Shown: positions 1,909-46,835, numbered from the stretch's first letter. The stretch: DNA of 64,000 nt from Patescibacteria group bacterium (GCA_018971305.1 JAGXBC010000002.1:80046-144045); one strand, 5' to 3'. The notes: a model not told the origin generated them from the letters alone. Numbers and translations: made by a program.

Positions 1909-2463
1909 ATGCCAGAAAAGACAGATGAAGACATCGCGACTGATGTCCAGCGCGGAGATGCGCAGGCTTTTGGGACGCTGGTAGAGCGTTATGAAGACAA
2001 GTTGATACGATACGCGAGGAGGTTTCTTCGCAGTAGCGATGACGCCGAGGATTTGGTGCAGGAAACATTCATTAAGGCTTATTCTAATATAAAAGGTTTT
2101 GATACTAAGCGTAGATTTTCCCCCTGGATATATCGCATTGCTCATAACGAATTCGTGAATTCCATGAGGAAGAGGAGCGGTAAGGAAAATATTTCCATTT
2201 TTGATTTCGATCTCCTTTTCCCCCATCCGGTTGCCAAGGAAACCGCGGATGACAAAGTGAATAAAGAAGAGTTAAAGAGGATGTTGGGGGGGTATTTGGA
2301 ACAGTTGGATCCCAAATACAGAGAGCCCATCGTCCTTTATTATTTTGAAGATATGGATTACGGAGAAATAGCGGACATTTTACAGATTCCTTCTTCCACT
2401 GTCGGCGTGCGTCTGCGCCGCGGCAAGGCGATGCTCAGAAAGTTGATGGATAAGTTAAATTGA
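1909..2463 (+). CDS. RNA polymerase sigma factor, ECF (sigma-70 region 2 + region 4)
   Basis: DLVQETFIKAYSNIKGFD (region 2.x), C-terminal HTH ADILQIPSSTVGVRLRRGKAMLRK (region 4). Confidence 0.8.
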   Translation: MPEKTDEDIATDVQRGDAQAFGTLVERYEDKLIRYARRFLRSSDDAEDLVQETFIKAYSNIKGFDTKRRFSPWIYRIAHNEFVNSMRKRSGKENISIFDFDLLFPHPVAKETADDKVNKEELKRMLGGYLEQLDPKYREPIVLYYFEDMDYGEIADILQIPSSTVGVRLRRGKAMLRKLMDKLN

Positions 2464-3182
2464 ATATGGAAAAAGAAAACAATAAACAATCTATTAAGGA
2501 CAGCGTTTTGAACGCAATAAAAAGCGGCAGAGCTAAGATGCTTCCGCGCTGGCATTTTGTTCTTAAGGGCGTACTGCTCGCGATTGGAGTTCTTTTGCTG
2601 GCCTTTCTTTTGCTCTATCTCGTGAGTTTTATCGTTTTTTCTATGCATCAGACGGGAGTTTGGTTTGTCCCGGTTTTTGGCTTGCCCGGTTGGTTCTCTT
2701 TCCTGCGACACATACCATGGATTCTTATCGGACTTTCTCTCTTATTCATTATTGTTCTGGAAATATTGGTCAGACGATATTCTTTCACATATCGTAAGCC
2801 CCTCTTATATTCGGTATTCGCTATAGTTCTAATCGCCGGTATCGTGGGAATTTTTGCTGCGCCGCTTCATAGGGGATTTTTCCTATCAATGCGTTTCGGC
2901 GGCAAAAGGCCTCCGCGGCCATCGATTCCTTTCTTGGACAATTTCTACCGCAGTTTCGGATTCCAGAGACTGGATGATGTTCACCGCGGGACGATAACGG
3001 AAATGATACCGGCAGGTTTTGTTATGGAAAATTTTGGTGGCGAAACTTCCACGATTATTATTTCTTCCGGTACGAGGCTTTTACCAATCAACGATTTTGA
3101 AGTCGGAGATACGGTTACGGTCTTTGGAGAAGAGAATGGTAATAGCGTGCAAGCGGTGGGCATAAGGGAAATAAGCGATTGA
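2460..3182 (+). CDS. Membrane protein, possible anti-sigma factor (start overlaps sigma stop, ATGA)
   Basis: Translationally coupled to the ECF sigma gene; multiple TM helices; no catalytic motif. Confidence 0.45.
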   Translation: MNMEKENNKQSIKDSVLNAIKSGRAKMLPRWHFVLKGVLLAIGVLLLAFLLLYLVSFIVFSMHQTGVWFVPVFGLPGWFSFLRHIPWILIGLSLLFIIVLEILVRRYSFTYRKPLLYSVFAIVLIAGIVGIFAAPLHRGFFLSMRFGGKRPPRPSIPFLDNFYRSFGFQRLDDVHRGTITEMIPAGFVMENFGGETSTIIISSGTRLLPINDFEVGDTVTVFGEENGNSVQAVGIREISD

Positions 3183-3286
3183 GATGTCCCTGGATACGGT
3201 AAGAATATTCCTGGTGGCAGCGAAATAAAAATATCTGGAATTTGTATATACATATACGGTGGATTTGCCCCCTGAAGCCCTTAACG

Positions 3287-5014
3287 ATGCTTAAAAATAT
3301 CTTCAAAAAAATTATAAAAAGAAAAATATTGTCCGCGATTGTGTTGGTTGGTGTTTGTGTCGGTGTCTATTTTTCTTATAACGCAATAAAAGGAGGTAGT
3401 GGCGGTGTCTTACCTCAATATGTTACCGCTAATGCTCAGGTCGGAACACTGGTGGTTTCCGTATCCGGCAGCGGCCAGATGGCGGCCTCCAGCCAGGTGG
3501 ATATAAAACCCAAAGTTTCGGGAGATGTGACATGGGTAGGAGTAGCGGCTGGAAACACTGTCCATTCCGGTCAAGCCCTTGTAAGAATAGATGACACTAC
3601 TGCCCTGCAGGCGGTGACCAACGCCGAACAATCTCTCGCTACATCCCGGCTTCAATATCAACAAGCAATAGCTCAGGCCCCCATAGATTATCAAAATGCG
3701 ATTAATGCTTTGGCTTCGGCGAAAACCTCTCTTAGTAATCAATACAATACTACTTTTAATATCCTTTCCAGTACGTATCTGGATTTGCCTGGTATAAATA
3801 CGGGAATGTATAACATTCTTTATGGAACCGATCTCGACCAGAAAAATGGTAAATGGAACGTCGATTCGCTTATTGATCTTTTCCAAAACCAAGACAATTC
3901 AACAATAATTTCGCTCGCCAATATCGCTAAGAGCGATTACGCCGTGGCCAATAATAAATATAATTCCAGCGTCACGTCTTATAAACAAATAACCAGGTCT
4001 TCGAGCGGTAGCGATTTAGAGAGTCTTCTCGGACAGAGCATAGATACTGCGGCTTCGGTTGCGCAGACCTTGCAAGATGAACTGAATTTATTGGGAGGAG
4101 TAACCGATCTTGCGAAGCAGTACGGTCGGACTTTACCAAATGCCATAAATACCCTACAGACAAACGCCCGCAATTATCTTACTAGTATGAACAGCGATTT
4201 GAGTTCGCTTTTATCACAGCAGCAATCTATTAATTCCGACGAGCAGGCTATTACAACGGATCAGCAAAATATTACCCTGCTTCAGGTTGGAAATCCGACC
4301 AATGATAATCCTATCAGTTTACAGATCTCTAAAAATAACTTGGCGGCACAGGAGCAGAGCCTCGCTGATCTTAAAACGGCGCTAAGCGATTACACAATAA
4401 CCGCGCCTTTCGACGGAACGATTTCCGCGGTAAACGTTAATGTGGGCGATACTCTGAGCGGCGCCGTGGCTACAATCGTTTCTACCAAGCAGCTGGCGCA
4501 GGCGACATTCAACGAGGTTGATATCGTCAATGTGAAAATAGGGCAAAAAGCCAGCGTGACCTTTGATGCGCTTCCAAATCTCACGCTTACCGGTAAGGTC
4601 GCAGAAGTTGATCCTGTGGGAACCGTAAGCCAAGGGGTGGTGAGCTATAAAGTTCAAGTTGCACTCGACGATAATAATCAATCTGTGAAGCCGGGAATGA
4701 GCGATACGGTGGAGATAATCACTAATGCCAAGCAGAACGCGCTCCTAATCCCTAATTCCGCGATAACAACAAGACAGGGAATATCTTATGTTCAGATCAT
4801 AGGAGCAGACGGAGTTCCTATAGAAACGCAGGTTACTACTGGTTTGTTTAATGACACCGAAACAGAAATATTGTCCGGTCTTAAAGAAAGCGATAAGGTG
4901 GTGACGCAGACCGTTGCCGCAAAAACAACTACGCAGAGTACTGTTGGCGCTACCGGCGGGAATGCCAGATTCGGCGGAGGGGGCGGCGGGGGATTGCGGG
5001 TTCTAGGATTATAG
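3287..5014 (+). CDS. HlyD/MacA-like periplasmic adaptor (membrane fusion protein) with long coiled-coil and Gly-rich tail
   Basis: N-terminal TM, beta-barrel/lipoyl-like segments (TITAPFDGTISAVNVNVGDTL), long Q/N-rich coiled coil; followed by ABC ATPase + FtsX permease. ATG at 3287 preferred over TTG at 3242. Confidence 0.7.
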   Translation: MLKNIFKKIIKRKILSAIVLVGVCVGVYFSYNAIKGGSGGVLPQYVTANAQVGTLVVSVSGSGQMAASSQVDIKPKVSGDVTWVGVAAGNTVHSGQALVRIDDTTALQAVTNAEQSLATSRLQYQQAIAQAPIDYQNAINALASAKTSLSNQYNTTFNILSSTYLDLPGINTGMYNILYGTDLDQKNGKWNVDSLIDLFQNQDNSTIISLANIAKSDYAVANNKYNSSVTSYKQITRSSSGSDLESLLGQSIDTAASVAQTLQDELNLLGGVTDLAKQYGRTLPNAINTLQTNARNYLTSMNSDLSSLLSQQQSINSDEQAITTDQQNITLLQVGNPTNDNPISLQISKNNLAAQEQSLADLKTALSDYTITAPFDGTISAVNVNVGDTLSGAVATIVSTKQLAQATFNEVDIVNVKIGQKASVTFDALPNLTLTGKVAEVDPVGTVSQGVVSYKVQVALDDNNQSVKPGMSDTVEIITNAKQNALLIPNSAITTRQGISYVQIIGADGVPIETQVTTGLFNDTETEILSGLKESDKVVTQTVAAKTTTQSTVGATGGNARFGGGGGGGLRVLGL

Positions 5015-5110
5015 ATCTCTGCGATCAAAAAAATAAATATAAAATATTGGCAGCCGCGAAAATGATTGGTGTAAATCAACTCTTAATTCGTTTTGCCTTC
5101 ACGGAGTAAT

Positions 5111-5824
5111 ATGATTGAAGTAAAAAATATCACGAAAATTTATAAGACTGGCGACTTTGAAACAGTCGCCTTAAAGAACGTGTCGTTTAGCGTCCGTGAC
5201 GGAGAATTCGTGGCGATTATGGGTCCGTCCGGTTCAGGCAAGTCAACGCTTATGCATTTACTCGGGGCGCTCGACACGCCTACGAGCGGAGAATATCTTC
5301 TTGACGGGAAAAATGTGGCCAAACTTTCCGAAGACGAACTTGCCGACATCCGCAACGAAAAGATTGGTTTTGTTTTCCAGCAGTTCAATCTTTTGCCGCG
5401 GGCCACTGTTTTCAGAAACGTAATGCTTCCGCTCGTGTACGCTGGAGTTGAAAGAGACAAAAGAGAAGAGCGTGCGAAAAAGGCTCTGGTTTCGGCCGCT
5501 CTGCCGGAAGATTGGTGGCAGCACCATTCCAATGAGCTCTCTGGAGGACAAATCCAAAGAGTTGCTATCGCTCGGGCGCTGGTTAATAATCCGACTTTAA
5601 TCCTGGCAGACGAGCCGACGGGAAATCTGGATTCCAAGACAGGAGAAATAGTTCTTGCTACTTTTCAGAGATTACATCAAGAAGGACGGACGATAGTGCT
5701 TATTACGCACGAGCTTTACGTTGCGGAACATGCTGAACGGATAATGCATATCCGCGACGGCGAAATAAAAGAAGACGGTAAAAATCATAGTCGCCGTATC
5801 GTCCATCATCCCGCAGCGGAATAA
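5111..5824 (+). CDS. ABC transporter ATP-binding protein (MacB/LolD-type)
   Basis: Walker [10 protein letters not shown], signature LSGGQIQR, Walker [12 protein letters not shown]; GGAG RBS before the ATG at 5111. Confidence 0.85.
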
Positions 5825-5829
5825 TATCC

Positions 5830-7056
5830 ATGATAATCTCCGAACTTTTAGAAGAAGCGTTTTCAGCCGTAACTGTAAATAAAGTGCGGTCTGGCCTTAC
5901 GGTTCTTGGAATCATCATCGGTATCGGTTCGGTTATCGCCATGATTTCCATCGGCCAGGGAGCACAGGGTTCCATTAACGCGAGCATCCAGTCAATTGGC
6001 TCTAATCTTTTAGTTGTCTCGCCGAGTTTCCAGAGAACACCGGGTTCGGTTGTTTCTTCCGGCCGTGGAGCTGCGGAGACACTAACTCAGGCCGACTCCG
6101 ATGCAATTGCTTCGCAGGTAACCCAGATTGCCGCCATCGCTCCGCAGATCAATGGCCGTTATCAGATAAAATCCAGGACTGCCAATACCAATACCCAGGT
6201 CGTGGGGACGGTTTCAAGCTATCCGCAGGTTAGGAATGTAGATATGAGCTTAGGTTCTTTCATTTCTGACCAAGATGTGGCGAGCGTGGCGAAAGTCGCG
6301 GTTTTGGGTCCGACCACAACCGGCGATCTTTTTAATTCTACAAGCACGGATCCCGTCGGTGAAACAATCCGTATCAATAACATCAACTTTAAAATAATCG
6401 GAGTTACTAAGGCGAAGGGAGGGAATGGTTTTTCCAATCAAGACGACATTATTTATATTCCGCTTTCTACTTCGCAGCGCTATCTCCAGGGCGGATCTTA
6501 TGTTGCTTCCATAAATATAGAAGCACAGGACGCCAGTTCCATGACCTCGGTTCAAGAGCAAGTTACCAATCTTCTTATGGAGCGCCATCGTATCAGCGAT
6601 CCCAATCAGGCCGATTTCAGCGTTATTAATCAAGCCGATATTGTTTCTGCGGCTTCTTCTGTTACCAATACATTCACCATATTACTCGCTTCCATCGCCG
6701 GTATTTCCCTTGTCGTCGGCGGCATCGGGATTATGAATATGATGCTGACGACGGTTACGGAACGTACCCGGGAAATCGGATTGCGTAAAGCAATTGGCGC
6801 AAAGAAAAAAGATATCAGTTCGCAGTTTCTCGCCGAATCTGTGATGCTCACTTTCGTCGGCGGCGTTATCGGCATCATTCTTGGTTGGGTAATCTCCCTC
6901 TTAGTCACCCATTTCAGCGGTATTGCCACTGCGATTTCCTGGTGGTCGGTATTTTTGGCCGTCGGAGTTTCCGCCGGTATCGGCATGATATTCGGATATT
7001 ATCCAGCCCGAAGGGCTGCGGGCTTGAATCCCATAGAAGCGCTGAGGTACGAGTAA
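5830..7056 (+). CDS. ABC transporter permease, FtsX/MacB family
   Basis: N-terminal TM, large periplasmic domain, C-terminal 3-TM FtsX-like region ending ...PARRAAGLNPIEALRYE. Confidence 0.8.
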   Translation: MIISELLEEAFSAVTVNKVRSGLTVLGIIIGIGSVIAMISIGQGAQGSINASIQSIGSNLLVVSPSFQRTPGSVVSSGRGAAETLTQADSDAIASQVTQIAAIAPQINGRYQIKSRTANTNTQVVGTVSSYPQVRNVDMSLGSFISDQDVASVAKVAVLGPTTTGDLFNSTSTDPVGETIRINNINFKIIGVTKAKGGNGFSNQDDIIYIPLSTSQRYLQGGSYVASINIEAQDASSMTSVQEQVTNLLMERHRISDPNQADFSVINQADIVSAASSVTNTFTILLASIAGISLVVGGIGIMNMMLTTVTERTREIGLRKAIGAKKKDISSQFLAESVMLTFVGGVIGIILGWVISLLVTHFSGIATAISWWSVFLAVGVSAGIGMIFGYYPARRAAGLNPIEALRYE

Positions 7057-7128: not shown

Positions 7129-7572
7129 ATGCACACAAAGAAACATTTAACTATAACTATCGTTGTCATCGTAGTTGCTGTAGTGGTTTCGTTCTACGGA
7201 GGGATGCTATACGGTAAATCTTCTAGCGCTTCTTCCAGATTTGGCGGTAATTTATCGGAGGCACAGCGGGCTCAGTTTCAGGGTGGTGCCGGAGGGCGTT
7301 CAGGGCAGTTCGGCCAAGGTGGCGGGATTTTAAGCGGGGACATTGTAGCTAAAGATAATCAAAGTATTACCCTTAAAACTCGTGACGGAAGTTCGCATAT
7401 AATTTTTTATTCCACTTCCACGAGAGTAATTAAGCCTTCGCCTGCTTCTATGGATGACGTGGTGAATGGTATTTCCGTTTTGATCACAGGAACGGCTAAC
7501 TCCGATGGAAGTTTGACGGCACAGTCGATTCAAGTGCGCGGATCTCAGCCGCAGGCACAACCTCAGGGATAA
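7129..7572 (+). CDS. Hypothetical secreted/anchored Gly-rich protein
   Basis: N-terminal TM helix then GGxG-rich region; no motif. Confidence 0.45.
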   Translation: MHTKKHLTITIVVIVVAVVVSFYGGMLYGKSSSASSRFGGNLSEAQRAQFQGGAGGRSGQFGQGGGILSGDIVAKDNQSITLKTRDGSSHIIFYSTSTRVIKPSPASMDDVVNGISVLITGTANSDGSLTAQSIQVRGSQPQAQPQG

Positions 7573-7692: not shown

Positions 7693-8331
7693 ATGAAAGA
7701 AATATTTCATAGACACAGATCGCTCTGGGTTCAGAAATCCTTTTTAGTTGGCGTAATCATGGGGATTTTAATGCTCGTCGCCGGAATAAGCGCCACTTAT
7801 TACGCTAATTTTTATACAACGATACACGCCAGTAACTCGGTTACAGATATTATTTTGGATAATATTCCCACGATAAACGTTGATTTCGTGTTCTCGGAGG
7901 GGGCGTCTATATTCGTCGCTATTTTCATCGCCGTTATTCTCTATGAACCCAAGCGCATGCCGTTCGCTCTTAAGGCCGCCGCCATGTTTTTCGTTACGCG
8001 TTCTTTTTTTATGATACTGACGCATATAGCTCCGCCGACTCATGGGTCTTATGTGGATCCAACTGATCTTATCTATAAATTAAGTTCGGGAGACGACCTG
8101 TTCTTTTCCGCGCATACGGGGTTTCCTTTTCTACTCGCACTAACTTTTTGGGACGAAAGATATTTAAGGGCGCTGTTCCTTGTCGCCACGGCAATCGGCG
8201 GCGCAGCGGTGCTTTTGGGACATTTGCACTACTCAATAGATGTTTTTTCCGCCTTGTTTATAAGTTTCGGAGTATACTATGCCGCGAAAAACTTTTTCTC
8301 TTCCGATTACGCACTTCTTAAATCGCAATAA
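7693..8331 (+). CDS. PAP2-superfamily-like membrane protein
   Basis: Multi-TM protein; motifs SAHTGF and GHLHYSIDV resemble PAP2 motifs 2 and 3 (SGH ... HxxxD). Confidence 0.5.
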   Translation: MKEIFHRHRSLWVQKSFLVGVIMGILMLVAGISATYYANFYTTIHASNSVTDIILDNIPTINVDFVFSEGASIFVAIFIAVILYEPKRMPFALKAAAMFFVTRSFFMILTHIAPPTHGSYVDPTDLIYKLSSGDDLFFSAHTGFPFLLALTFWDERYLRALFLVATAIGGAAVLLGHLHYSIDVFSALFISFGVYYAAKNFFSSDYALLKSQ

Positions 8332-8464: not shown

Positions 8465-9001
8465 ATGAAAAAATTTATTTTATCAATATCTCTTATCGGC
8501 GCATTCGCTTTTTATGTTTTAATGAGTTCGCCGCAGTTGGTGCTTGTTGTAGCGCAGACCCCTGTTTCTCCGCCGACAGAAGAAGGCAGTAATCAAAACC
8601 CGACACCCCCGATATCGGGAAATCCCACAGAGACCGATACGCAGAGCCAGCCCCCGGCTACAGCTCCAACTCCAGCACCTGTTCCGGTTGCCGCGGCGCC
8701 TAAGCCATCAAGCGGATTATATAAAGACGGTTCCTATACTGGTCCGCTTACTGACGCTTATTATGGCTACGTTCAGGTTCAGGCCGTAATTCAGGGAGGA
8801 AAGTTGGCAGATGTAAGTTTCTTGCGTTATCCGAACGACAGGGGAACATCTATCTATATAAATTCGCAGGCCATGCCTTATTTGAAAATGGAAGCAATCC
8901 AGGCTCAAAGCGCCAAAGTCGATATAATCTCCGGTGCCACGGCGACAAGCGAGGCGTTTATCAAGTCGCTTGGCTCGGCGCTTGCTTCGGCAAAAAGCTA
9001 A
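8465..9001 (+). CDS. Secreted FMN-binding domain protein (predicted ApbE flavinylation substrate)
   Basis: Signal/TM anchor, Pro/Thr-rich linker, FMN_bind-like domain with the flavinylation motif D-I-I-S-G-A-T-A-T; ATG at 8465 preferred. Confidence 0.7.
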   Translation: MKKFILSISLIGAFAFYVLMSSPQLVLVVAQTPVSPPTEEGSNQNPTPPISGNPTETDTQSQPPATAPTPAPVPVAAAPKPSSGLYKDGSYTGPLTDAYYGYVQVQAVIQGGKLADVSFLRYPNDRGTSIYINSQAMPYLKMEAIQAQSAKVDIISGATATSEAFIKSLGSALASAKS

Positions 9002-9003
9002 TC

Positions 9004-9765
9004 ATGAAACATAATAGATTCATCATGGGTATGCCCATAGAGGTTGAGATAGTCGGCGGAACTGGAACCGAAAGCGCCGCCGAGGTGGTTTTTTCTTATT
9101 TTCGCTACGTGGATGAGAAATTCAGCACTTACAAAAATACGAGTGAAATCAGTTTTATCAATAAGGGATTTTTAGGCACCGAAGATTTAAGTGAAGACAT
9201 GAAAGAAATTTTATCGCTGGCTGCTAAAACCAAGCAGGAGACCGAAGGCTATTTTGACATTTTAACTCCTGCCGGAAATTATGATCCTTCGGGAATAGTT
9301 AAGGGTTGGGCCGTCTACAATGCGTCAAAAATGCTGTGGAGGCTCGGCCTTGAAAATTTTTACATCAATGCCGGCGGCGATATTGAAGCGCATGGGAAAA
9401 ATAGCGAGGGCAGGAGTTGGAGTGTTGGTATTAGAAACCCTTTTGCCAAAGAACAGATTGTGAAGGTAATTTATATGGAGAACCTGGGAGTTGCCACGTC
9501 CGGTAACTATGAACGGGGCGAGCACATTTATAATCCGAAAGATGTAGATGATGCCTGGAAAGAAATTAAAAGTTTGACGGTTATCGGGCCGAACGTTTAT
9601 GAAGCCGATCGTTTTGTCACCGCTGCTTTTGCCATGGGGCGAAAGGGAATAGATTTTATAGAAAGCATTCCCAGATTAGAGGGATATATGATAGACAACA
9701 CCGGCCTCGCCAGAATGACGAGCGGTTTCGAGAAACATACCGAAGATTATGCTCAAGTCGATTGA
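9004..9765 (+). CDS. apbE: FAD:protein FMN transferase (ApbE family)
   Basis: ApbE-like segments GWAVYNASKML ... YINAGGDIEAHGKN ... VATSGNYER; directly downstream of the FMN-binding protein. Confidence 0.7.
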   Translation: MKHNRFIMGMPIEVEIVGGTGTESAAEVVFSYFRYVDEKFSTYKNTSEISFINKGFLGTEDLSEDMKEILSLAAKTKQETEGYFDILTPAGNYDPSGIVKGWAVYNASKMLWRLGLENFYINAGGDIEAHGKNSEGRSWSVGIRNPFAKEQIVKVIYMENLGVATSGNYERGEHIYNPKDVDDAWKEIKSLTVIGPNVYEADRFVTAAFAMGRKGIDFIESIPRLEGYMIDNTGLARMTSGFEKHTEDYAQVD

Positions 9766-11281
9766 TAATATTTTAAACAGGATAACGATGTATCGGGTAG
9801 TTTTATACTACCTTTTGGCGCTCTGGGGGATAGCGCTTGCTTTTTCTTTTTTCGGAATTTTGCCGTACAACCCGCTGGCCATGACCTTCTCCGCGGCTTT
9901 TATTGTGGCTATCTGCTGGTCGGCGAATAATATCTTTTCCAGGATATTTGAAGCGCCAACGAACGTTGAATCTATTTTTATTACCGCCCTGATTCTCGCT
10001 CTCATCATCACTCCTCTTAAATCTCTCGCCGATACCGGTGGAATGATGTTCCTCTTTTGGGCATCTGTCTGGGCAATGGCTTCCAAGTATATTTTAGCCA
10101 TTAAAAAGAAGCACATTTTCAATCCTGCTGGTTTTGCCGTAGCGTTGACGGCCTTAACTATCGGAAGCTCCGCCACTTGGTGGGTTGGAGGAACCTTACA
10201 GATGATGCCATTCGTGCTTGCGGGCGGACTGCTTCTTGTGCGGAAGATTCAAAGATTTGATCTGTCCATAGCATTTTTCTTGTCGGCGATGGTCTCAATT
10301 TTATGGACAGGCGTCTCTCCGCTTTCCGGACCGTTGGACGTTATGTACAAAGCTTTGGTTCACGCGCCTATCTTCTTTTTTGCGTTTGTCATGATAACGG
10401 AACCGTTGACGACACCCCCCACGAAAATTACGCGCATATTATACGGAATTTTCACGGGGCTCCTATTCGCTCCGGCAATCCACATCGGTTCGATCTATTC
10501 AACCCCGGAGCTCGCGCTTCTTTGTGGCAACGCTTTTTCGTATTTACTTAGCCCAAAGAGTAAATTTATTTTGCAATTAAAAAACAAAGAACGGATGTCT
10601 ACGGATGTCTACGATTTTGTTTTTACTCCCAATCAGAAATTATCTTTCAGGCCCGGGCAATATTTGGAATGGACCCTGCCGCATGAAGGATCCGACAGCA
10701 GGGGAAACAGGCGTTATTTTACTATCGCCTCCTCTCCTACCGAGAAGGAACTTAGGGTAGGAGTAAAATTTTATCCCCAGCCGAGCAGTTTCAAAAAATC
10801 GTTGTTCTCTATGGGTGCGGACAAAAAAATTGTCGGGGCGCAGCTCTCCGGTGACTTTGTTCTGCCCAGGAATAAAAATCGCAAGCTGGCGCTTATCGCC
10901 GGCGGTATAGGGATTACTCCGTTCCGGAGCATGGTCAAATATCTTTTGGATAAGAATGAAAAGAGGGACATCGCTTTATTCTATTCCAATAAAACTGCAG
11001 ACGATATAATTTATCGGGATGTATTTGACGAAGCCGAGCGGCGGCTTGGCATCAGGACAGTTTACACGGTTACCGATACGCAAAGCGCGCCTCGGGAAGG
11101 GAAAATAAGAAAAGGCAGGATAAGCCCGGAAATTCTTATGAAGGCCCTGCCCGATTATAGCGAGAGAATGTTTTACCTTTCCGGACCGCGCTCAATGGTT
11201 GTTGCTTTTGAAGAAACCCTGAAAGCTCTGGGCGTAAAAAAGAGAAAGATCAAAACCGATTTCTTTCCTGGTTTTGCTTAG
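9749..11281 (+). CDS. Fusion protein: NqrB/RnfD-like polytopic membrane domain + ferredoxin-NADP-reductase-like FAD/NAD(P)-binding domain
   Basis: N-terminal multi-TM region with NPAGFAVA (NqrB/RnfD NPA motif) and GSSAT (possible SGAT-like flavinylation site). C-terminal RYFTIASSP (RxYS FAD motif) and GGIGITPFRS (NAD(P)-binding). An alternative start at 9788 (MYRVV) would avoid the overlap with apbE. Confidence 0.6.
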   Translation: MLKSIDNILNRITMYRVVLYYLLALWGIALAFSFFGILPYNPLAMTFSAAFIVAICWSANNIFSRIFEAPTNVESIFITALILALIITPLKSLADTGGMMFLFWASVWAMASKYILAIKKKHIFNPAGFAVALTALTIGSSATWWVGGTLQMMPFVLAGGLLLVRKIQRFDLSIAFFLSAMVSILWTGVSPLSGPLDVMYKALVHAPIFFFAFVMITEPLTTPPTKITRILYGIFTGLLFAPAIHIGSIYSTPELALLCGNAFSYLLSPKSKFILQLKNKERMSTDVYDFVFTPNQKLSFRPGQYLEWTLPHEGSDSRGNRRYFTIASSPTEKELRVGVKFYPQPSSFKKSLFSMGADKKIVGAQLSGDFVLPRNKNRKLALIAGGIGITPFRSMVKYLLDKNEKRDIALFYSNKTADDIIYRDVFDEAERRLGIRTVYTVTDTQSAPREGKIRKGRISPEILMKALPDYSERMFYLSGPRSMVVAFEETLKALGVKKRKIKTDFFPGFA

Positions 11282-11352: not shown

Positions 11353-12057
11353 ATGATAGAAATTTCCAATTTGAGCAAGCGTTACGGAAAACAGGTCGTC
11401 GTTGACGATCTCTCGCTAAAAATAAGTAAGGGTGAAACCTTCGGTTTTTTGGGGCAGAACGGCGCCGGGAAAACGACCACGATAAAAATGATAGTGGGGC
11501 TTACGCGCCCCGACGAAGGGAAGATAACCATCGGCGGAAAACTTGTGGACGACATCTCTGCCAGAAGAAAAATCGGCTTTATGCCCGAAGCCCCTTATTT
11601 TTATGAGCGGCTGACGGGCATGGAGTTCATGAAATTTTGCGGAGATTTGTTCGGGGAAAATAATAGATCGGAATCAGAGTACGAAGACATTTTAAAGATG
11701 ACCGGGATTTTCGACGCCAAAGACAAGGCCATCGGTAAGTATTCCAAGGGAATGAAGCAACGCCTCGGTTTCGCGCAAACTCTAGTCAACGATCCAGATT
11801 ATATTTTTCTTGATGAACCTCTGGACGGACTTGATCCCTTGGGGCGCAAAGAGATAAAAAAAATTATTAAAACTTTGCAGGGCAACGGCAAGACGATTTT
11901 TTTCAATTCGCATATTCTTTATGACACAGAAGAGCTTTGCGACAGAATCGGTATAATCCATAAAGGTAGATTGCTTTACGCTGGTGCAGTAAAAGAATTC
12001 TGTCAGGGTAAACCCTTGGAAGAAAAATTCGTGGAATTAGTTGAAATGCAGCAATGA
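11353..12057 (+). CDS. ABC transporter ATP-binding protein (ABC-2/NatA-like)
   Basis: Walker [10 protein letters not shown], signature YSKGMKQR, Walker [12 protein letters not shown]. Confidence 0.85.
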
Positions 12058-12659
12058 GCAGAAAACTTTTAATAGCAACAGGGAGTAAGGGCAAATTTCC
12101 TGAAATCGTTAAAGAACTCGGCGCTTTACCGGTGGAATTTTTAAGTCTCGCGGATTTGGGATATCCTGCCGATTACGAGATAGAAGAACCTGCGATGACT
12201 TTTGAAGGCAACGCTATAATCAAGGCGATGACTATGGGCAAAAAGAGCGGCCTCTTAACGCTCGCGGACGATTCCGGATTGGAAGTAGACGCCCTGGGCG
12301 GGCGCCCCGGAGTTTTTTCCGCCAGATATACTCCTGGTGAAGATGCGGATAGATGCGTAAAAATTTTACAAGAACTTAGGAATGTCCCGGATGGTGAGCG
12401 TGGGGCGCAGTTCCGTTGCCTAGTAGCAATTTATGATCCGGAGACAGAAAAGGTAAGAACCTGTGAGGGCATTTATCGCGGTCGCATCATCCGCGAAGAG
12501 CATGGCACGAACGGTTTTGGCTATGACCCGATATTTTATAATGACGAGCTCGGTAAAACCAACGCCGAAATGTCTATGGAGAAAAAAAATTCCGTAAGCC
12601 ACAGAGGGGCGGCTCTAAAAAAAGCGAAGGAAATATTAATTAAGGAATTCTTAAACTAA
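12054..12659 (+). CDS. rdgB: Non-canonical purine NTP pyrophosphatase RdgB/Ham1 (dITP/XTP pyrophosphatase)
   Basis: LLIATGSKGKFPE N-terminus, FGYDPIF and ...SHRGAA C-terminal motifs typical of the Ham1 family; ~200 aa. Confidence 0.8.
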   Translation: MSRKLLIATGSKGKFPEIVKELGALPVEFLSLADLGYPADYEIEEPAMTFEGNAIIKAMTMGKKSGLLTLADDSGLEVDALGGRPGVFSARYTPGEDADRCVKILQELRNVPDGERGAQFRCLVAIYDPETEKVRTCEGIYRGRIIREEHGTNGFGYDPIFYNDELGKTNAEMSMEKKNSVSHRGAALKKAKEILIKEFLN

Positions 12660-12660
12660 C

Positions 12661-13419
12661 ATGCATAACGTACTCGTCATCGCCAAAAATACTTTCAAAG
12701 AGGCGGTTCGGGACAGGATATTTTACGCCATCCTCGGATTCGCCGTTCTCTTTATTCTTCTGGATTTATTTTTAGCCCGTCTCGCTTTGGGTGATCCCGT
12801 GATGATAAAAAGTTTCGGGCTGGCTGGTATCTACATTTTCGGCCTCATCGTCACCATATTTCTAGGCTCCTCCATAATCTATAAGGAAATAGAGCGGCGC
12901 ACGCTTTATTTTATAATTTCCAAGCCGGTCACGAGAGCTCAGGTTGTTCTGGGAAAATTCTTAGGATTGTTCATGGCGGTTGCCTTAACCACTGTGCTCA
13001 TGGCGGTCGTTTACATAGGAGTTGTGCTTCACGAAACTAGTATGTTCGATTTCCTTGGTCTCGTTGCCGTATTTTTCCAGCTTTTGGAGATGGGTCTCAT
13101 AGTGGCGGTTCTTATATTCTTTTCTTCCATTACCGCGCCGATGACGGCTACGCTCCTTGCCGTGATTATGGTTTTTATCGGACATCTCTTGGGTTCGGTT
13201 CTATATAGCGGCGAGATTATCGGTGGGACTACATATAAATTATCACTGGCCTTTTATTATTTATTTCCAAACCTGGAGAAGTTTGATCTGCGCAATCTGG
13301 TAGTGCATGGGATATCAATAACACCACATGGCGCGCTTTTTGCCATCGCCTACGCCGTGCTTTATTCGGGAATCCTTATTTGGGGAGCTATTCTGCTTTT
13401 GAACAGGCGCGAGCTTTGA
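12661..13419 (+). CDS. ABC-2 family transporter permease
   Basis: Six predicted TM helices; N-terminus MHNVLVIAKNTFKEAVRDRIFY typical of ABC-2 permeases; pairs with the ATPase at 11353. Confidence 0.65.
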   Translation: MHNVLVIAKNTFKEAVRDRIFYAILGFAVLFILLDLFLARLALGDPVMIKSFGLAGIYIFGLIVTIFLGSSIIYKEIERRTLYFIISKPVTRAQVVLGKFLGLFMAVALTTVLMAVVYIGVVLHETSMFDFLGLVAVFFQLLEMGLIVAVLIFFSSITAPMTATLLAVIMVFIGHLLGSVLYSGEIIGGTTYKLSLAFYYLFPNLEKFDLRNLVVHGISITPHGALFAIAYAVLYSGILIWGAILLLNRREL

Positions 13420-33960: not shown

Positions 33961-34032
33961 GCGCGCTTAGCTCAGTGGTAGAGCGTCACATTGACATTGT
34001 GAAGGCCGGAGGTCCGATCCCTCCAGCGCGCA
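33961..34032 (+). tRNA. tRNA-Val (anticodon GAC)
   Basis: Acceptor GCGCGCT/AGCGCGC, D-arm TAGCTCAGTGGTAGAGCG, anticodon loop TTGACAT, T-loop TCCGATC-like. Confidence 0.8.
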
Positions 34033-34135
34033 CACTCCAGTGATAGGTGTTTCAAGACCGTAAGATATGAGGTTCCTGGGCGTCCTTGAGCCTTGACCCT
34101 CTAGTACACTGAAACTCTATCACATGAAAATACCG

Positions 34136-34169
34136 CGACGAAATCGTCGCGGTATTTTCATCTCGGGCT
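34136..34169. terminator. Bidirectional intrinsic terminator: perfect palindrome GAAAATACCGCGACGA-AA-TCGTCGCGGTATTTTC flanked by A-run and T-run
   Basis: 16-bp stem; ends 12 nt before the stop of the minus-strand recombinase gene. Confidence 0.7.
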
Positions 34170-34180
34170 TTTCGTTCCGG

Positions 34181-35521
34181 CTACGATGTTTCCTGCGGCA
34201 TCAAGCTGATCACTCTATCTTTGAGCATCAATCGGCTCTTGAGATTTGATAGCAGTTCGCGCTTCTCCGTAATCGTGCCTTCCGTCAGGATATATATGGC
34301 GTAGGATTTGGCATCGAATATCTCCGGCTCAGCATTCTGTTCACGACTTTTGCCCAAGGCAACCCTCCGGAACTTGTTGTATCGCGTAATTTCGTCTTTG
34401 AATTTTTGCTTCACACCTAGCTCGTTCATATCAAGCGTGTCGAGCATCGCCACGATCTGTTCGATGATTTCCTCCTCTTTGATGTACCCGCATTGACAGT
34501 TCACGTCGCGCTTCTTCGTGCAGCCGTAGTAGACGTACCGATGGGTATTCCCGTTCTTCTGGTATTTCCATTTTTCCGATGCTGTGATGCCCGATCCGCA
34601 TAATCCGCACGTTATCAATTTCGTGAAGGCAAACTCTTTGTCGTTTTTTACCTCGCTCCGTTTCAATTGCTCCCGCGCCCGATCATACAGTTCTTTTGTT
34701 ATGAGCGGCGCATGGGCACCGGTATACCATTTCCCCGATCCTTCGGGGAATTCGAACGTGCCGTAGTAAAATGTTTTCTGCAGGATGATGAAGATGTTCC
34801 CGAGCGAGAGGAATTTCCCGTTCACAGTTTTGAACTTGATGTCGTTCTTTAGCCACACATAGAGCCGTCGTCCCGACCACTGCTCATTCGCGACTTTCTC
34901 GAACATCTGGCGGATGATAGGAGCACGGACAGGATCCACGATCACTTGGCACTTTCGATCTTTTCGTTTCTCGTTCAAGTAACCGGTGGGCGCGATACCC
35001 GGCCAGAGGCCTTGTTCGACGCGCGTTCGCAATCCTCGCTTCACATTCTCCGATTTGTTGTCATTCTCGAGTTTCGCTGTCGAGCACAGAATCATCAGCA
35101 TAAACTTCTCGCTTGGATTGTTTGTAAATTTCTGCGAGAAGGTTCTGATTTCCAAAAGTAGCTTCTGATCCATGAGATCGACGAGCGCACCGAGATCGCC
35201 CGCATTTCTTGAAAGGCGATCCGGCGCCCATGTGAGGATGCCTGTAAATTTGCCGGATCGGATATCAAGAACGAGCCCGTTGAAAACCTCTCTTTGCCCT
35301 ACGGCTTTGGCGGAATGGCTTTCCTTTCTGATCTCAGCGATCTCGAGTCCATCGCGTTCCGCGATCTTGATCATCTCCTTGATTTGGCTGTCTATTGAAA
35401 GGACTTGCTGTTCCTCGCTCTCTGTACTCTTTCTTGCATACAGACAGTAGGCGACCTTTACTGGCAGCGGCTGGTTGGTTGAGGTCGCCGCTCCTGCCGA
35501 CCCCTTAGTTTGGTTAGTCAT
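34181..35521 (-). CDS. Large serine recombinase (resolvase/invertase-type catalytic domain + recombinase domain + Zn ribbon)
   Basis: N-terminal catalytic motif YARKSTESEE...SIDSQ (Ser nucleophile), DRLSRN, C-terminal Cys cluster CGLCGSG...C...C; higher GC than surrounding genes by eye. Confidence 0.85.
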   Translation of the reverse strand: MTNQTKGSAGAATSTNQPLPVKVAYCLYARKSTESEEQQVLSIDSQIKEMIKIAERDGLEIAEIRKESHSAKAVGQREVFNGLVLDIRSGKFTGILTWAPDRLSRNAGDLGALVDLMDQKLLLEIRTFSQKFTNNPSEKFMLMILCSTAKLENDNKSENVKRGLRTRVEQGLWPGIAPTGYLNEKRKDRKCQVIVDPVRAPIIRQMFEKVANEQWSGRRLYVWLKNDIKFKTVNGKFLSLGNIFIILQKTFYYGTFEFPEGSGKWYTGAHAPLITKELYDRAREQLKRSEVKNDKEFAFTKLITCGLCGSGITASEKWKYQKNGNTHRYVYYGCTKKRDVNCQCGYIKEEEIIEQIVAMLDTLDMNELGVKQKFKDEITRYNKFRRVALGKSREQNAEPEIFDAKSYAIYILTEGTITEKRELLSNLKSRLMLKDRVISLMPQETS

Positions 35522-35617
35522 ACCCTAAGGGATGACGCAACCCCGCCCAGGAGTCCAGAGCGTCCTGGGAACCTCCCAAAACCCCTAAAATCTCTTATTT
35601 GCATTGTAAAAGGCCCT

Positions 35618-35637
35618 ATAACCTATGATAACCTATG
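35618..35637 (+). repeat. Tandem direct repeat ATAACCTATG x2 immediately upstream of the hsdM -35 element
   Basis: Direct reading; candidate regulator binding site. Confidence 0.45.
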
Positions 35638-35643
35638 AAGGTA

Positions 35644-35672
35644 TTGACTTTACAAAATAGATCGATTAGAAT
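35644..35672 (+). promoter_or_regulatory. Sigma-70-like promoter TTGACT-17-TAGAAT for the Type I RM operon
   Basis: Near-consensus hexamers with 17-nt spacer; the -10 ends 12 nt before the hsdM ATG. Confidence 0.55.
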
Positions 35673-35684
35673 AGGGTTAACGGT

Positions 35685-37367
35685 ATGCGTAAAGATATAC
35701 AAGCAAAACTCAAGGGAATGCCGGAATTGCTCTCTATCAGCCAGGTAGCTGAGATTTTTAATATTCACCCTGATACTCTCCGGAACTGGGAAAAGGACGG
35801 TATTTTAGTGCCCTTGCGGGCTGGTAAGCGCGGCGATCGCAAATACCGTCCGCAGGACATTCAGGCCATCGTGGACAAGATGGGCAGCAAACTCACCCTG
35901 CCGCAGCTTGAGCAGTTTCTTTGGAAGAGCGCCGATATTCTTCGCGGCAAGATTGATAGTTCCGATTATAAAAAATATATATTCGGACTTCTTTTCTACA
36001 AGCGTATCAGCGACGTATGGGACGAGGAATATAAGCGCGTCATGGAGGAATACAAAGATGAGACTATCGCGCGGGCCGACTACAACCATCGTTTTCAAGT
36101 ACCGCCGGATTGCCGGTGGTCTGTTATTGAGGAACAGGCGGAAAATATCGGTCCGAAGCTTAACGGAATTTTTGATAAGCTCACGAATGCAAACAGCCCT
36201 AAACTGGACAAAATTTTTGATGATCTCGATTTCGCCCATAAAGATAAATTTCCGAACGAAACTACTCAGCGTTTAATAAACCACTTCTCGCAATATAATT
36301 TTGGCGACACTTACATCAACTCCGACCTTCTTGGAGATGCATATGAATATCTCATAAAGCAATTCGCGGCTGATGCCGGAAAGAAAGGTGGGGAGTTTTA
36401 CACCCCGCGCGAAGTTGAGCGTGTCATCATCCAAATTCTTAATCCCCACAAGAAAGACCACATATATGATCCCACGGTTGGGTCCGGTGGTTTTTTGCTC
36501 GAAGCCTACCATCACTTAAAAGAAAAAGAGGGCGAGAAAATTGCTCGCACGCTCTATCTATATGGGCAGGAGATAAATATCAGCACGTTTGCGATTGCCA
36601 AGATCAACATGTTCCTCCATGGACTTGATGCAGCTGATATTCAACGCGGCGATACACTTGCAAATCCCCAATTTCTGAATCCGAACGGAACATTAAAAAC
36701 CTTCGACATCTGCGTGGCAAATCCCCCCTATTCAATCAGTGACTGGGAAAATGAAATGTTCAAAGAACGGTATGGCCGAGTGGAGGGATATGAAATACCG
36801 CCAAAAAGTAATGCTGACTACGCTTTCGTACTCCACATCATTAAGTCCATGAACTCAAACGGCCGAGCTGGTATCGTGTTGCCGCACGGTGTTCTATTCC
36901 GTGCCGGTGCCGAGGGACGCATCCGAGAGCAAATACTCAAAAACGACCTTATTGAGGCGGTGATCGCACTTCCACCCAAGCTTTTCTATGGCACTGGTAT
37001 TCCGGCGGCCATTCTCATCTTCAATAAAAACAAGTCAGACAGTCACAGGGGAAATGTCCTTATCGTTGACGCCGAGAAGGATTTTTCTGAAGGTAAAAAC
37101 CAGAATTCGCTCCGCGCACAAGACATTCAGAAAATCGTGAAGGCGTATGACAGCTACAGAGATGTCGAGGGCTATGCCCGCGTTGTTAGCCTCAAAGAAG
37201 TCGAGAAGAATGAATATAACCTCAACGTGCACCGATACATAGAAAATGGCGATAAAGAGGAGGAAATAGACGTATCTGTTGTTCGTAAGGAACTTACTGC
37301 GCTCGAGAAGGAACGCGCTGAGGCCGATATAAAAGTCGATGAATTTTTGAATGAGCTTAAATATTGA
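35685..37367 (+). CDS. hsdM: Type I restriction-modification system, methyltransferase subunit HsdM
   Basis: N-terminal HsdM_N, AdoMet motif I DPTVGSGGFL, motif IV VANPPYS. Confidence 0.9.
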   Translation: MRKDIQAKLKGMPELLSISQVAEIFNIHPDTLRNWEKDGILVPLRAGKRGDRKYRPQDIQAIVDKMGSKLTLPQLEQFLWKSADILRGKIDSSDYKKYIFGLLFYKRISDVWDEEYKRVMEEYKDETIARADYNHRFQVPPDCRWSVIEEQAENIGPKLNGIFDKLTNANSPKLDKIFDDLDFAHKDKFPNETTQRLINHFSQYNFGDTYINSDLLGDAYEYLIKQFAADAGKKGGEFYTPREVERVIIQILNPHKKDHIYDPTVGSGGFLLEAYHHLKEKEGEKIARTLYLYGQEINISTFAIAKINMFLHGLDAADIQRGDTLANPQFLNPNGTLKTFDICVANPPYSISDWENEMFKERYGRVEGYEIPPKSNADYAFVLHIIKSMNSNGRAGIVLPHGVLFRAGAEGRIREQILKNDLIEAVIALPPKLFYGTGIPAAILIFNKNKSDSHRGNVLIVDAEKDFSEGKNQNSLRAQDIQKIVKAYDSYRDVEGYARVVSLKEVEKNEYNLNVHRYIENGDKEEEIDVSVVRKELTALEKERAEADIKVDEFLNELKY

Positions 37368-37368
37368 T

Positions 37369-38508
37369 ATGGAAACAGCGCAGAGGATAATTCCGAAAGA
37401 ATGGAGTATAAAAAAGGTTGAAGACCTTTTTGAAATAGGCCGCGGAAGAGTTATTAGTAAAAAAGAGATTCAACAAAACCCGGGACCATTCCCAGTATAC
37501 TCTTCTCAGACTTCAAACGGTGGGGAGTTCGGGAAAATAGGAACCTATGATTTTGAGGGGGAATATTTAACATGGACTACTGACGGCATTTATGCTGGGG
37601 CAGTATTTTATCGGAACGGTAAGTTTAACTGTACAAACGTTTGTGGAACCTTAAAACCAAGAGGGCATATTGATGCTCGATTTTTCTCTTACCTGCTGCC
37701 GTTGTACGCAGGGCGGCATGTCGTAAGAACCGCTAATCCAAAATTGATGAACAATGTCATGGCAAGGGTTTCAATACCAGTCCCGCCAATTAAGGAACAG
37801 AAGAAGATTTCAGAAATTTTAGTGGCGGTTGATCGGATAATTCGAGGCACGGACGAGATTATCGCCGTTACGGGGAAACTTAAGCGAGGGCTAATGCAGC
37901 ATTTTTTTGCCAAAAGCGAATGGAATAGAAAAAAGATTGCTGATATTGCAGAAGTTGTCACCGGTGGTACCCCAAAAACATCGGTCCCAGAATATTGGGA
38001 TGGTTCAATCCGATGGATGTCATCCGGCGAGGTTAATCTAAGACGGGTCAGGGATACGGAAAAAATGATCACACAGAAAGGATTTGATAATTCTAACGCG
38101 CGAATGTTACCTCTTGGGACGGTAATGGTTGCGTTGGCTGGTCAGGGGAAAACTCGAGGGAAGGTAGCAATATTAGAAATTGAGACTACGTGCAACCAAT
38201 CTCTTGCCGGGATTATTCCGAACGCGAATCTTTTATCGAATGAATTTCTCTTTTACAACCTCGAATATCGTTACCAAGAACTGAGAGATATTAGCGGCGG
38301 CGAAGGTCGCGCAGGATTAAATCTAAAACTGATCAAAGAGTTTGTGGTTCCAGTCCCGCCACTACAGGAGCAGAAAAAGATTGCAACAGCCCTGACGTCA
38401 ATCGACAAAAAGATTTCAATCAACCAGAAATTAAAAGCCGAGCTTAATCTTCTCAAAAAAGGTCTCATGCAAGATCTTTTGAGCGGAAAAGTACGGGTAA
38501 CCATCTAA
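37369..38508 (+). CDS. hsdS: Type I restriction-modification system, specificity subunit HsdS (two TRDs)
   Basis: Two target-recognition domains separated by the conserved central repeat; ATG at 37369 sits 1 nt after the hsdM stop (translational coupling). Confidence 0.8.
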   Translation: METAQRIIPKEWSIKKVEDLFEIGRGRVISKKEIQQNPGPFPVYSSQTSNGGEFGKIGTYDFEGEYLTWTTDGIYAGAVFYRNGKFNCTNVCGTLKPRGHIDARFFSYLLPLYAGRHVVRTANPKLMNNVMARVSIPVPPIKEQKKISEILVAVDRIIRGTDEIIAVTGKLKRGLMQHFFAKSEWNRKKIADIAEVVTGGTPKTSVPEYWDGSIRWMSSGEVNLRRVRDTEKMITQKGFDNSNARMLPLGTVMVALAGQGKTRGKVAILEIETTCNQSLAGIIPNANLLSNEFLFYNLEYRYQELRDISGGEGRAGLNLKLIKEFVVPVPPLQEQKKIATALTSIDKKISINQKLKAELNLLKKGLMQDLLSGKVRVTI

Positions 38509-38512
38509 AGAT

Positions 38513-39859: not shown

Positions 39860-39860
39860 T

Positions 39861-42773: not shown

Positions 42774-42774
42774 A

Positions 42775-43344: not shown

Positions 43345-43376
43345 TCCTACGTGGAAGAAGCTAAATTTCTAAATTC

Positions 43377-45914: not shown

Positions 45915-45966
45915 TATAGAACCGGTTACCAAACGACAACCAGTCCGGAGGTGTTATGGGCTATTA

Positions 45967-46701: not shown

Positions 46702-46835
46702 GTATGTTTCAGGAGCATAATTCAGTGTTTGTAAAAAATCAATCTATTGAACTGGGAAGGTTTTTGACCATCTTTTTTCACCCACCGTGATGCAGCGGGT
46801 TTTTTGTGTTTCGCAAAAATAAATCAACAACTACC

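Follow-up and report, generated by a model that had tools for sequence, protein, structure and literature searches.

What kind of electron-transfer system does a three-gene flavinylation cluster of a Patescibacterium encode, and how can its flavin transferase serve a substrate that appears to face the outside of the cell? Both questions are raised by positions 8465–11281 of a 64,000-nucleotide (nt) stretch of DNA from a Patescibacteria group bacterium (GCA_018971305.1, JAGXBC010000002.1:80046-144045), which was analysed as a whole and is called the window here. An earlier note, made from the sequence alone, had described an extracytoplasmic flavinylation cluster at this place, composed of a protein with an FMN_bind domain carrying an SGAT target motif for flavin mononucleotide (FMN), an ApbE-type flavin transferase, and a fusion of an NqrB/RnfD-like membrane domain to an FNR-like reductase module. 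Three tightly packed open reading frames (ORFs) are found on the plus strand at the coordinates given there, and we consider it likely that they encode a transmembrane electron-transfer module of the Nqr/Rnf-like type, made of two subunits, and the flavin transferase dedicated to it.

The identical proteins are deposited in NCBI (MBU6500611–613, in a 297-kb contig of a Patescibacteria metagenome-assembled genome (MAG)) with start sites that agree with ours, and are named FMN-binding protein, FAD:protein FMN transferase (FAD, flavin adenine dinucleotide) and 'RnfABCDGE type electron transport complex subunit D', respectively. The ATG of the ApbE gene lies 2 nt after the stop codon of the FMN_bind gene, and the ApbE and fusion genes overlap by 17 nt, which bears out an operon-like arrangement of three genes on one strand; scans for promoters and terminators yielded nothing exceeding the shuffled expectation, and the boundaries of the operon are thus drawn from gene spacing alone. 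The four Pfam families against which the note had asked the proteins to be checked (PF04205, PF02424, PF03116 and PF00175) all exceed their curated cut-offs, and the quoted motifs FNPA, GSSAT, RRYFTIASSP and GGIGITPFRS are present along with the flavinylation motif discussed below. There is one FMN_bind gene and one ApbE gene in the window, and the motif D..[ST]G[AS][ST] has a single occurrence among its six-frame ORFs of at least 60 amino acids (aa), in the FMN_bind protein. For comparison, relatives were scanned using one genome per species, which gave at least 444 confirmed matches, and 80 loci were retrieved; the comparison sets comprise 120 fusion homologues, 71 FMN_bind partners (58 of them with a clear anchor) and 68 ApbEs. 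A fusion of FMN_bind to ApbE, or a frameshift between them, was ruled out, as the junction frames and gaps vary between loci. A candidate second FMN_bind gene at 59386–59760 was also rejected, its match being weak (E 3e-4) and accompanied by neither a Pfam match nor a flavinylation motif; the product is a signal-anchored, Lys/Pro-rich low-complexity protein, matched spuriously by the hidden Markov model of the FMN_bind family.

The C-terminal part of the fusion is matched by PF00175 (NAD_binding_1) with 64.6 bits over residues 382–486, and PF00970 (FAD_binding_6), at 20.7 bits, falls just short of its cut-off of 21.1. The similarities in NCBIfam are to the reductase modules of flavohaemoprotein, Fre and NqrF, and phmmer finds matches in the PDB too. 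Moreover, the AlphaFold2 (AF2) model of the full-length fusion (pLDDT 83.8, pTM 0.78) retrieved with Foldseek a series of FAD/NAD modules, including the FAD domain of NqrF, with TM-scores of up to 0.83. The PF00175 score and these FNR/NqrF fold matches bear out the FNR-like fusion partner.

The N-terminal membrane domain is more divergent. PF03116 (NQR2_RnfD_RnfE) covers residues 113–267 of the fusion with a marginal 31.6 bits (gathering cut-off 27.7), and the family profile matches Azotobacter RnfD (8ahx_D) with E 3.3e-4, the one RnfD that this search of the PDB returned, over the C-terminal half only, so that a fold search was needed. A simple global pairwise alignment to RsxD of Escherichia coli is uninformative at such divergence; local and global profile alignments were used in its place, and hhalign assigns the relationship to RsxD a probability of 92%. 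Since the Foldseek list of the full-length model was saturated by FNR modules, the membrane domain was modelled alone (residues 1–271; pLDDT 75, pTM 0.76). The 15 best PDB matches of this model are all RnfD (TM-score 0.67–0.71) or NqrB (0.53–0.60) with E values of at most 1.6e-3, and the next ones are urea and Amt (ammonium) channels with E of 0.12 or higher. The earlier note had named as its refutation an N-terminal domain unrelated to NqrB/RnfD on profile search; Pfam, profile, hhalign and fold matches all speak for the relationship. Ten transmembrane (TM) segments were taken from the AF2 helices, and across the 120 homologues the loops on the side of the FNR module contain on average 14.6 Lys plus Arg residues, those across the membrane 1.7. 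A cytoplasmic location, as in NqrB and RnfD, is therefore predicted for the FNR module and for both ends of the membrane domain.

Within this fold, H122, N125, E218 and also T217 are invariant and are located at cytoplasmic helix ends, and the segment ITEPLTT of the fusion aligns to LTDPVTA of RsxD. It is known that N200, N203, T345 and D346 of Vibrio cholerae NqrB hold riboflavin atop FMN_B (PMC9293633), and H122, N125, T217 and E218 would occupy the corresponding riboflavin-pocket positions. There is no conserved Cys in the membrane domain, and the only two conserved His lie on opposite faces; judging from these residues, the domain presumably uses flavin.

The membrane domain was further suspected to carry a second flavinylation site at GSSAT. 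In the global alignment of the 120-sequence profile with RsxD, residues ~146–222 of RsxD, including DGISQAT187, fall in a gap; the FMN-modified residue of E. coli RsxD is T187, as reportedly found by Backiel et al. 2008, a study cited in PMC8238504. The alignment is anchored by the start of the FNPA helix (fusion 125/RsxD 121) and by the LAGG helix (158/230), between which there are 33 residues in the fusion vs 109 in RsxD, that is, the periplasmic loop of ~76 residues bearing the flavinylated Thr of RnfD is deleted in the fusion. GSSAT is found at the end of the helix preceding the deleted loop and aligns to VQMTSW of RsxD, not to DGISQAT187. A reading with two covalent flavins, in which ApbE also modifies Thr143 of GSSAT as the counterpart of the FMN-Thr of NqrB/RnfD, would nevertheless fit the conservation of the surrounding S141, A142, W144 and W145 (the last three invariant in 120/120 homologues) and the outward-facing position of residue 143, which is Ser or Thr in 110 of the 120 homologues. 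But while 82 of them have S and 28 have T at this position, 9 have N and 1 has I, and these 10 sequences contrast with the acceptor column of the FMN_bind partner, which is S/T in 71/71; in addition, no Asp is present at −6, and the conserved flavinylated Thr of the membrane domain is described as lost in the class by Huang et al. 2024 (mSystems; PMC11334425). Going by the alignment, GSSAT is not a homologue of the NqrB/RnfD site. Because the loop is deleted, the motif aligns to a helix end and position 143 is not always S/T, it is an unlikely acceptor, and we regard a second covalent flavin at this place as very improbable. The segment S-A-[S/T]-W-W (residues 139–145) exceeds most of the membrane domain in conservation, and no corresponding function is ascribed to it in RnfD or NqrB; it might form part of the wall of the vacated FMN pocket or touch the FMN_bind subunit.

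The NCBI product name, the PF03116 match and the RnfD-like fold could be taken to mean that the fusion belongs, as a true RnfD or NqrB, to a conventional Rnf or Na+-NQR complex that pumps ions. However, the fusion scores only 23.6 bits against TIGR01946 (rnfD; cut-off 207.05) and 16.2 bits against NF002181 (NqrB; cut-off 792), and no RnfA/B/C/E or NqrA/D/E family was found among the window ORFs scanned against Pfam or recurring in the 80 loci. The missing flavinylated loop and the fused FNR module, which is foreign to the real subunits, argue in the same direction, and there is hardly any chance that this alternative is correct. The NCBI name 'RnfABCDGE … subunit D' is an over-annotation in view of the score (23.6 vs 207 bits), the lack of rnf genes nearby and the loss of the flavinylated loop. 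Such a misleading annotation could lead metabolic reconstructions to assume an Rnf complex where none exists.

The locus shares with Na+-NQR of V. cholerae the NqrB fold with its riboflavin-pocket positions, an NqrC-like partner, an NqrF-like FAD/NADH module and an ApbE encoded alongside. It differs in that NqrA/D/E and a 2Fe-2S domain are absent, the NqrF-like module is fused to the NqrB-like domain, the membrane domain is probably without covalent FMN and the ApbE is not a lipoprotein; furthermore, a one-way outward flow is proposed here vs the semicircular path to quinone there, and no ion pumping is implied. With Rnf, the likeness lies in the best fold match, to RnfD of Acetobacterium woodii, Azotobacter vinelandii and Clostridium tetanomorphum, and in the RnfG-like anchored partner, whereas RnfA/B/C/E and the FMN-Thr loop are lacking and the proposed donor is NAD(P)H via the fused FNR module rather than ferredoxin or NADH via RnfB/C.

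The partner of the fusion is the FMN_bind protein, in which the SGAT target was correctly recognized by the earlier note: PF04205 matches with 31.3 bits (E 3.3e-7; gathering cut-off 22), and DIISGAT occupies residues 153–159. In a phmmer comparison with the solved FMN-binding domain 8p2a_A (E 2.1e-11), this motif is aligned to DAVSGAT. The substrate motif D-x-x-[ST]-G-A-[ST] with its S/T acceptor thus stands inside the FMN_bind domain, the flavinylation itself being predicted. Of the 71 partners, 45 have Thr in the acceptor column and 26 have Ser, and ahead of it stand G in 70/71 and A or S in 71/71. The start codon at 8465 is backed by the MKK..LS N-termini of homologues and by the NCBI gene call, and the domain, of ~90 residues, follows the anchor and linker listed in Table 1. 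Among the 58 partners with a clear anchor, the N-terminal flank carries on average 2.19 Lys plus Arg residues vs 1.09 on the C-terminal flank, being the more positive one in 40 partners and the less positive one in 2. By the positive-inside rule, this indicates an N-in, C-out topology, like that of NqrC and RnfG.

These features correspond to a class that has been described. Méheust et al. 2021 (eLife; PMC8238504) defined the 'NQR/RNF-like system' as a PF03116::PF00175 fusion in a flavinylation cluster, and Huang et al. 2024 modelled the class as a two-subunit conduit from NAD(P)H to the outside (PMC11334425). At the locus, PF03116 and PF00175 are both present, and of ApbE and FMN_bind, either of which would suffice within five genes, both are immediately upstream of the fusion. 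As for the signal required in that survey, the FMN_bind protein has an MKK sequence and a hydrophobic N-terminal segment, either a cleaved peptide or an anchor, and the ApbE has none. The class shares with the locus the same fusion, the ApbE, the anchored FMN_bind protein, the two-subunit design, the loss of the membrane Thr and its hosts, namely the Candidate Phyla Radiation (CPR), Ktedonobacteria and Actinobacteria. We see no essential difference, the leaderless short ApbE and the higher abundance being the points that do not appear in the published text as available. The comparison with published flavinylation clusters thus agrees with the definition and the model of the class: the locus is a typical member of it, already known, and brings no new concept. 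The occurrence of such a conduit in a reduced-genome organism, which had been considered notable, is not so, since the CPR is already one of the two main host groups reported, the NQR/RNF-like systems being mainly found in Actinobacteria and CPR according to Méheust et al. 2021 (PMC8238504).

The relatives support this placement and extend it. Full-length fusions at 57–63% identity are very numerous in metagenomes, and the 80 loci are labelled as CPR (34), Alphaproteobacteria (11, Mesorhizobium, Kaistia and others), Chloroflexota including Ktedonobacteria (9), Microbacteriaceae (4), Spirochaetota (4), and unclassified or doubtfully labelled MAGs (18). The fusion is adjoined by ApbE in ~67/80 loci and by FMN_bind in ~69/80, nearly always in the order FMN_bind–ApbE–fusion with junctions of +12 to −37 nt, and this order is kept across Patescibacteria, Chloroflexota, Rhizobiales, Microbacteriaceae and Spirochaetota. 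Clustering of the neighbours in the 80 loci gave no fourth broadly conserved gene, the further clusters being mostly shadow ORFs; the recurrent neighbours are an OmpR-type regulator with a histidine kinase (17–22/80 loci) and a MacB/HlyD-type exporter (10–20/80), neither of which points to a function. With at least 444 matches in our scan, the family seems to be more common than the 127 clusters reported by Méheust et al. (PMC8238504). VIT1 iron transporters occur in 6 of those 127 clusters, and the Pfam scan of the window ORFs revealed none. A few loci are arranged otherwise: L018 has two tandem FMN_bind genes (4955–5955; motifs IVSGAT and IISGAT) and no adjacent ApbE, and several stand-alone fusion genes have neither partner nearby (L020, L023, L047, L060 and L071).

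On the basis of the homology, the following path may be proposed. NAD(P)H would reduce FAD in the cytoplasmic FNR module, and FAD would pass electrons to a non-covalent flavin in the NqrB-riboflavin-type pocket formed by H122, N125, T217 and E218. As the FMN-bearing loop of the membrane domain itself is gone, the FMN pocket would be open to the partner, whose Thr159-bound FMN could occupy it permanently or at times. Huang et al. 2024 suggest the same for a Ktedonobacter complex: in their AlphaFold-multimer model, the NqrC/RnfG-like subunit docks on the outer face, and its flavinylation site comes close to the flavin pocket (PMC11334425). From there the tethered FMN_bind domain would deliver electrons to an acceptor outside the membrane, and on balance the reducing equivalents of NAD(P)H would be exported in one direction only. 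The path from NAD(P)H over FAD and the membrane domain to FMN_bind, which the earlier note had sketched, is the model published for the class (PMC8238504; PMC11334425). In a fermentative Patescibacterium, its role is most plausibly the regeneration of NAD(P)+, or the reduction of iron or another external oxidant, and it may be among the few routes for transmembrane electron movement in these ultra-small organisms.

The module might also work in a different mode, either as an ion-coupled, minimal Na+- or H+-translocating NAD(P)H oxidoreductase or in reverse, with an external reductant or the membrane potential making NAD(P)H. The RnfD/NqrB fold comes from ion-translocating complexes, which in the case of Rnf are reversible, as is well established, and E218 is an invariant intramembrane acidic residue. 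Against it, the equivalent Asp of NqrB binds riboflavin and not Na+ (PMC9293633), the subunits presumed to provide the ion path and Fe-S centres (NqrD/E, RnfA/E) are absent, and NAD(P)H is the stronger reductant, which makes the outward flow downhill. We consider such a mode quite improbable, and keep to the outward-directed electron-transfer module.

Two further systems are similar in principle. The earlier note had likened the cluster to flavin-based extracellular electron transfer (EET), and the likeness to that of Listeria, which comprises Ndh2, EetA/B, DmkA/B, FmnA/B and PplA, is one of logic only: NADH is oxidised inside, and the electrons go to a tethered FMN_bind protein (PplA) flavinylated by an ApbE (FmnB). 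In Listeria this requires Ndh2, a demethylmenaquinone derivative and EetA/B vs a single fusion here, for which no quinone is required, and FmnB is an exported lipoprotein fed with FAD by a dedicated energy-coupling factor (ECF) transporter, whereas the ApbE of the window is leaderless. No Ndh2, EetA/B or Dmk family was found among the window ORFs scanned against Pfam, and with its one FMN_bind protein and one ApbE the cluster is related to that system by analogy only. The NADPH oxidase (NOX)/ferric-reductase proteins (SpNOX of Streptococcus pneumoniae, 8qta) and MsrQ-like proteins are alike by convergence, combining a membrane conduit with a C-terminal FNR-type dehydrogenase, and SpNOX is among the Foldseek matches of the full-length model; their conduit is a six-helix bis-haem one, in contrast to the RnfD/NqrB fold of the fusion.

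Several points weigh against an outward-facing electron-transfer module. We infer the cofactors of the membrane domain, the direction of the electrons and the acceptor alike, and the NqrB-to-RsxD equivalence behind the riboflavin-pocket positions comes from motif spacing. None of the recurrent genes in the 80 loci is an acceptor-indicating neighbour, and searches of the literature brought up neither an experiment on an Nqr/Rnf-like member nor a CPR paper dealing with ApbE. Finally, the ApbE of the window, the 67 ApbEs of related loci and those of the 150 closest representative clusters all lack a signal peptide, lipobox or TM segment, and an exported FMN_bind substrate should be beyond the reach of an ApbE that is leaderless.

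This last point deserves attention, as the catalytic residues of the enzyme are invariant. PF02424 matches it with 133.6 bits (E 1.2e-38), and an alignment to the ApbEs of E. coli and Salmonella (4xgw, 2o18 and 3pnd) shows that TSG, the His of EHIYNP and EADxxxT are conserved, although ~50 internal residues are missing in addition to the leader. S166, R171, H174, D202 and T206 are invariant in 68/68 ApbEs, and the active site is, by its residues, intact. The folded core of the window ApbE (MKHNRFIMGMP…) begins after seven residues, and the related ApbEs, even at their maximal ORF extension, have a median of 7 residues ahead of it. The most hydrophobic 15-mer within the first 45 residues scores at most 2.0 and is the core strand itself, and a strongly hydrophobic 19-mer is found nowhere in any ApbE of the related loci. 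An exhaustive search of 1.84 billion representatives gave 198 clusters at E of 1e-30 or below; the best 150 of these 198 were inspected, and nearly all are 230–290 aa long and match from their first residues. N-terminal extensions of up to +146 aa were considered as leaders or informative fusions and rejected, being non-hydrophobic over-extended ORFs or a frameshifted gene call. The ApbEs of the clusters are uniformly short, ~245–255 aa, or ~285–310 aa in the Saccharibacteria/Actinobacteria branch.

The canonical ApbE is a lipoprotein that acts, after export, on substrates that are exported too (PMC12052999). The label 'extracytoplasmic flavinylation' given by the earlier note is not straightforward, the ApbE having no export signal. 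Possible resolutions of the conflict are a cytoplasmic flavinylation before export, an FMN_bind domain that faces the cytoplasm, or an unrecognised export route of the ApbE. The second of these would turn the system into an inward-facing, membrane-bound NAD(P)H-dependent reductase whose FMN_bind protein is flavinylated by the cytoplasmic ApbE, perhaps serving a membrane or cytoplasmic acceptor by way of the riboflavin-type pocket. It would explain an ApbE that is leaderless clade-wide with invariant catalytic residues, and cytoplasmic ApbE/FMN_bind systems are known: the ApbE of Klebsiella pneumoniae likewise has no signal peptide and an intact active site, its substrate there being a soluble cytoplasmic fumarate reductase (PMC12052999), vs an N-in anchored homologue of NqrC/RnfG here. 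Yet the positive-inside data on the anchors and the homology to NqrC and RnfG, which are periplasmic, argue against a cytoplasm-facing domain, the linker of the window protein contains no positive charge, and the published AlphaFold-multimer model docks the subunit on the outer face (PMC11334425). We therefore regard an inward-facing reductase as unlikely, and the outward-facing module with its dedicated transferase remains our preferred reading.

A bolder proposal is that, in the whole clade, the ApbE dedicated to Nqr/Rnf-like systems really resides in the cytoplasm, so that the subunit is either flavinylated inside and then exported, or does not work outside the cell. We advance it tentatively and with some doubt. 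In the first case, FMN would be attached from the cytoplasmic FAD pool and the subunit exported with its covalent FMN, for which no FAD exporter would be needed, and this would be a biogenesis route that has no precedent among ApbE substrates. In the second, the published model of an 'extracytosolic conduit' for the class would be wrong. Either way, surveys based on signal peptides would under-count flavinylation systems in Patescibacteria. The available portions of Méheust et al. 2021 and Huang et al. 2024 contain no mention of a leaderless ApbE, and the pipeline of the former, as there described, discarded clusters in which a signal peptide was predicted for none of the target genes (PMC8238504), a filter that may under-count such clusters in CPR. 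The leaderless ApbE presents a concrete, testable conflict between the locations of enzyme and substrate, the answer to which would lead either to a new biogenesis route or to a revised model of the class.

Table 1. Features of the flavinylation cluster, in coordinates of the window
Feature	Position	Strand	Details or basis
FMN_bind subunit gene, NqrC/RnfG-like	8465–9001	+	178 aa; NCBI MBU6500611.1
N-terminal signal anchor, MKK and hydrophobic helix, residues 1–22	8465–8530	+	hydropathy, positive-inside rule
Tether linker, ~60 residues, Pro/Thr/Gln-rich, no positive charge	8531–8713	+	read from translation
ApbE target motif DIISGAT, predicted acceptor Thr159 (codon 8939–8941)	8921–8941	+	partner alignment
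ApbE gene, FAD:protein FMN transferase	9004–9765	+	253 aa, short, leaderless; MBU6500612.1
Fusion gene, RnfD/NqrB-fold::FNR-type	9749–11281	+	510 aa; MBU6500613.1
Predicted RnfD/NqrB-fold membrane domain, residues 1–270, 10 TM helices, both termini inside	9749–10558	+	Pfam, profile, fold
KKKHIFNPA, H122 and N125 aligned to RsxD N119 and N122	10103–10129	+	global hhalign
GSSATWW, outward-facing helix-end motif	10163–10183	+	aligned to RsxD VQMTSW; not the NqrB/RnfD flavinylation site
ITEPLTTPP, T217 and E218 aligned to T and D of RnfD/NqrB 'LTDP'	10394–10420	+	hhalign; NqrB T345, D346
FNR-type FAD/NAD(P)H module, residues 273–510, predicted cytoplasmic	10565–11281	+	PF00175, fold
RRYFTIASSP, FAD-binding/NAD(P)H-binding motif set	10709–10738	+	
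GGIGITPFRS, FAD-binding/NAD(P)H-binding motif set	10901–10930	+	

The neighbours of the cluster in the window are genes for ABC transporters, PAP2_C, DUF5666 and Ham1 proteins, and none is of the Rnf type. Directly upstream lie the genes of a Gly-rich, anchored protein that matches DUF5666 weakly (7129–7572) and of a PAP2_C-domain membrane protein (7693–8331). These two are unlikely to be part of the system, since DUF5666-like ORFs occur in just 7 loci and PAP2_C does not recur. Further upstream, there are a HlyD-like adaptor with a poly-Gly tail (3242–5014) and, judged by eye, a MacB-type ABC ATPase and permease (5093–7056), so that the MacB/HlyD-type exporter recurrent near the relatives is present in the window at 3242–7056. 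They are preceded on the same strand by an ORF resembling an extracytoplasmic function-type sigma factor (1909–2463, by eye), with which a polytopic membrane protein without Pfam match overlaps (2460–3182), possibly an anti-sigma factor. On the other side of the cluster, a Ham1/RdgB-type NTP pyrophosphatase gene (12054–12659; PF01725, E 4e-56) stands between ABC ATPase and ABC-2 permease genes (11353–13419 in all), with a 4-nt overlap with the former, and is an unusual guest in a transporter operon.

At a greater distance, the region 33961–48695 beside a tRNA-Val gene (33961–34033) is a probable integrated island. Two large serine recombinases, at 34181–35521 on the minus strand and 46806–48695 on the plus strand, flank a type I restriction-modification system (HsdM 35685–37367, probable HsdS 37351–38508 and HsdR 39780–42773) and a KAP-family P-loop NTPase (43377–45914), and the GC content dips to 0.41–0.43 at 38–46 kb. 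An OmpR-type response regulator and a histidine kinase are encoded at 52696–54332, ~42 kb from the cluster, a pair similar to that which adjoins the cluster in some of the related loci. It is followed, in the region to 56355, by a small secreted protein, a membrane protein with DUF347 repeats (54910–55734) and a PsbP-like protein (55747–56355).

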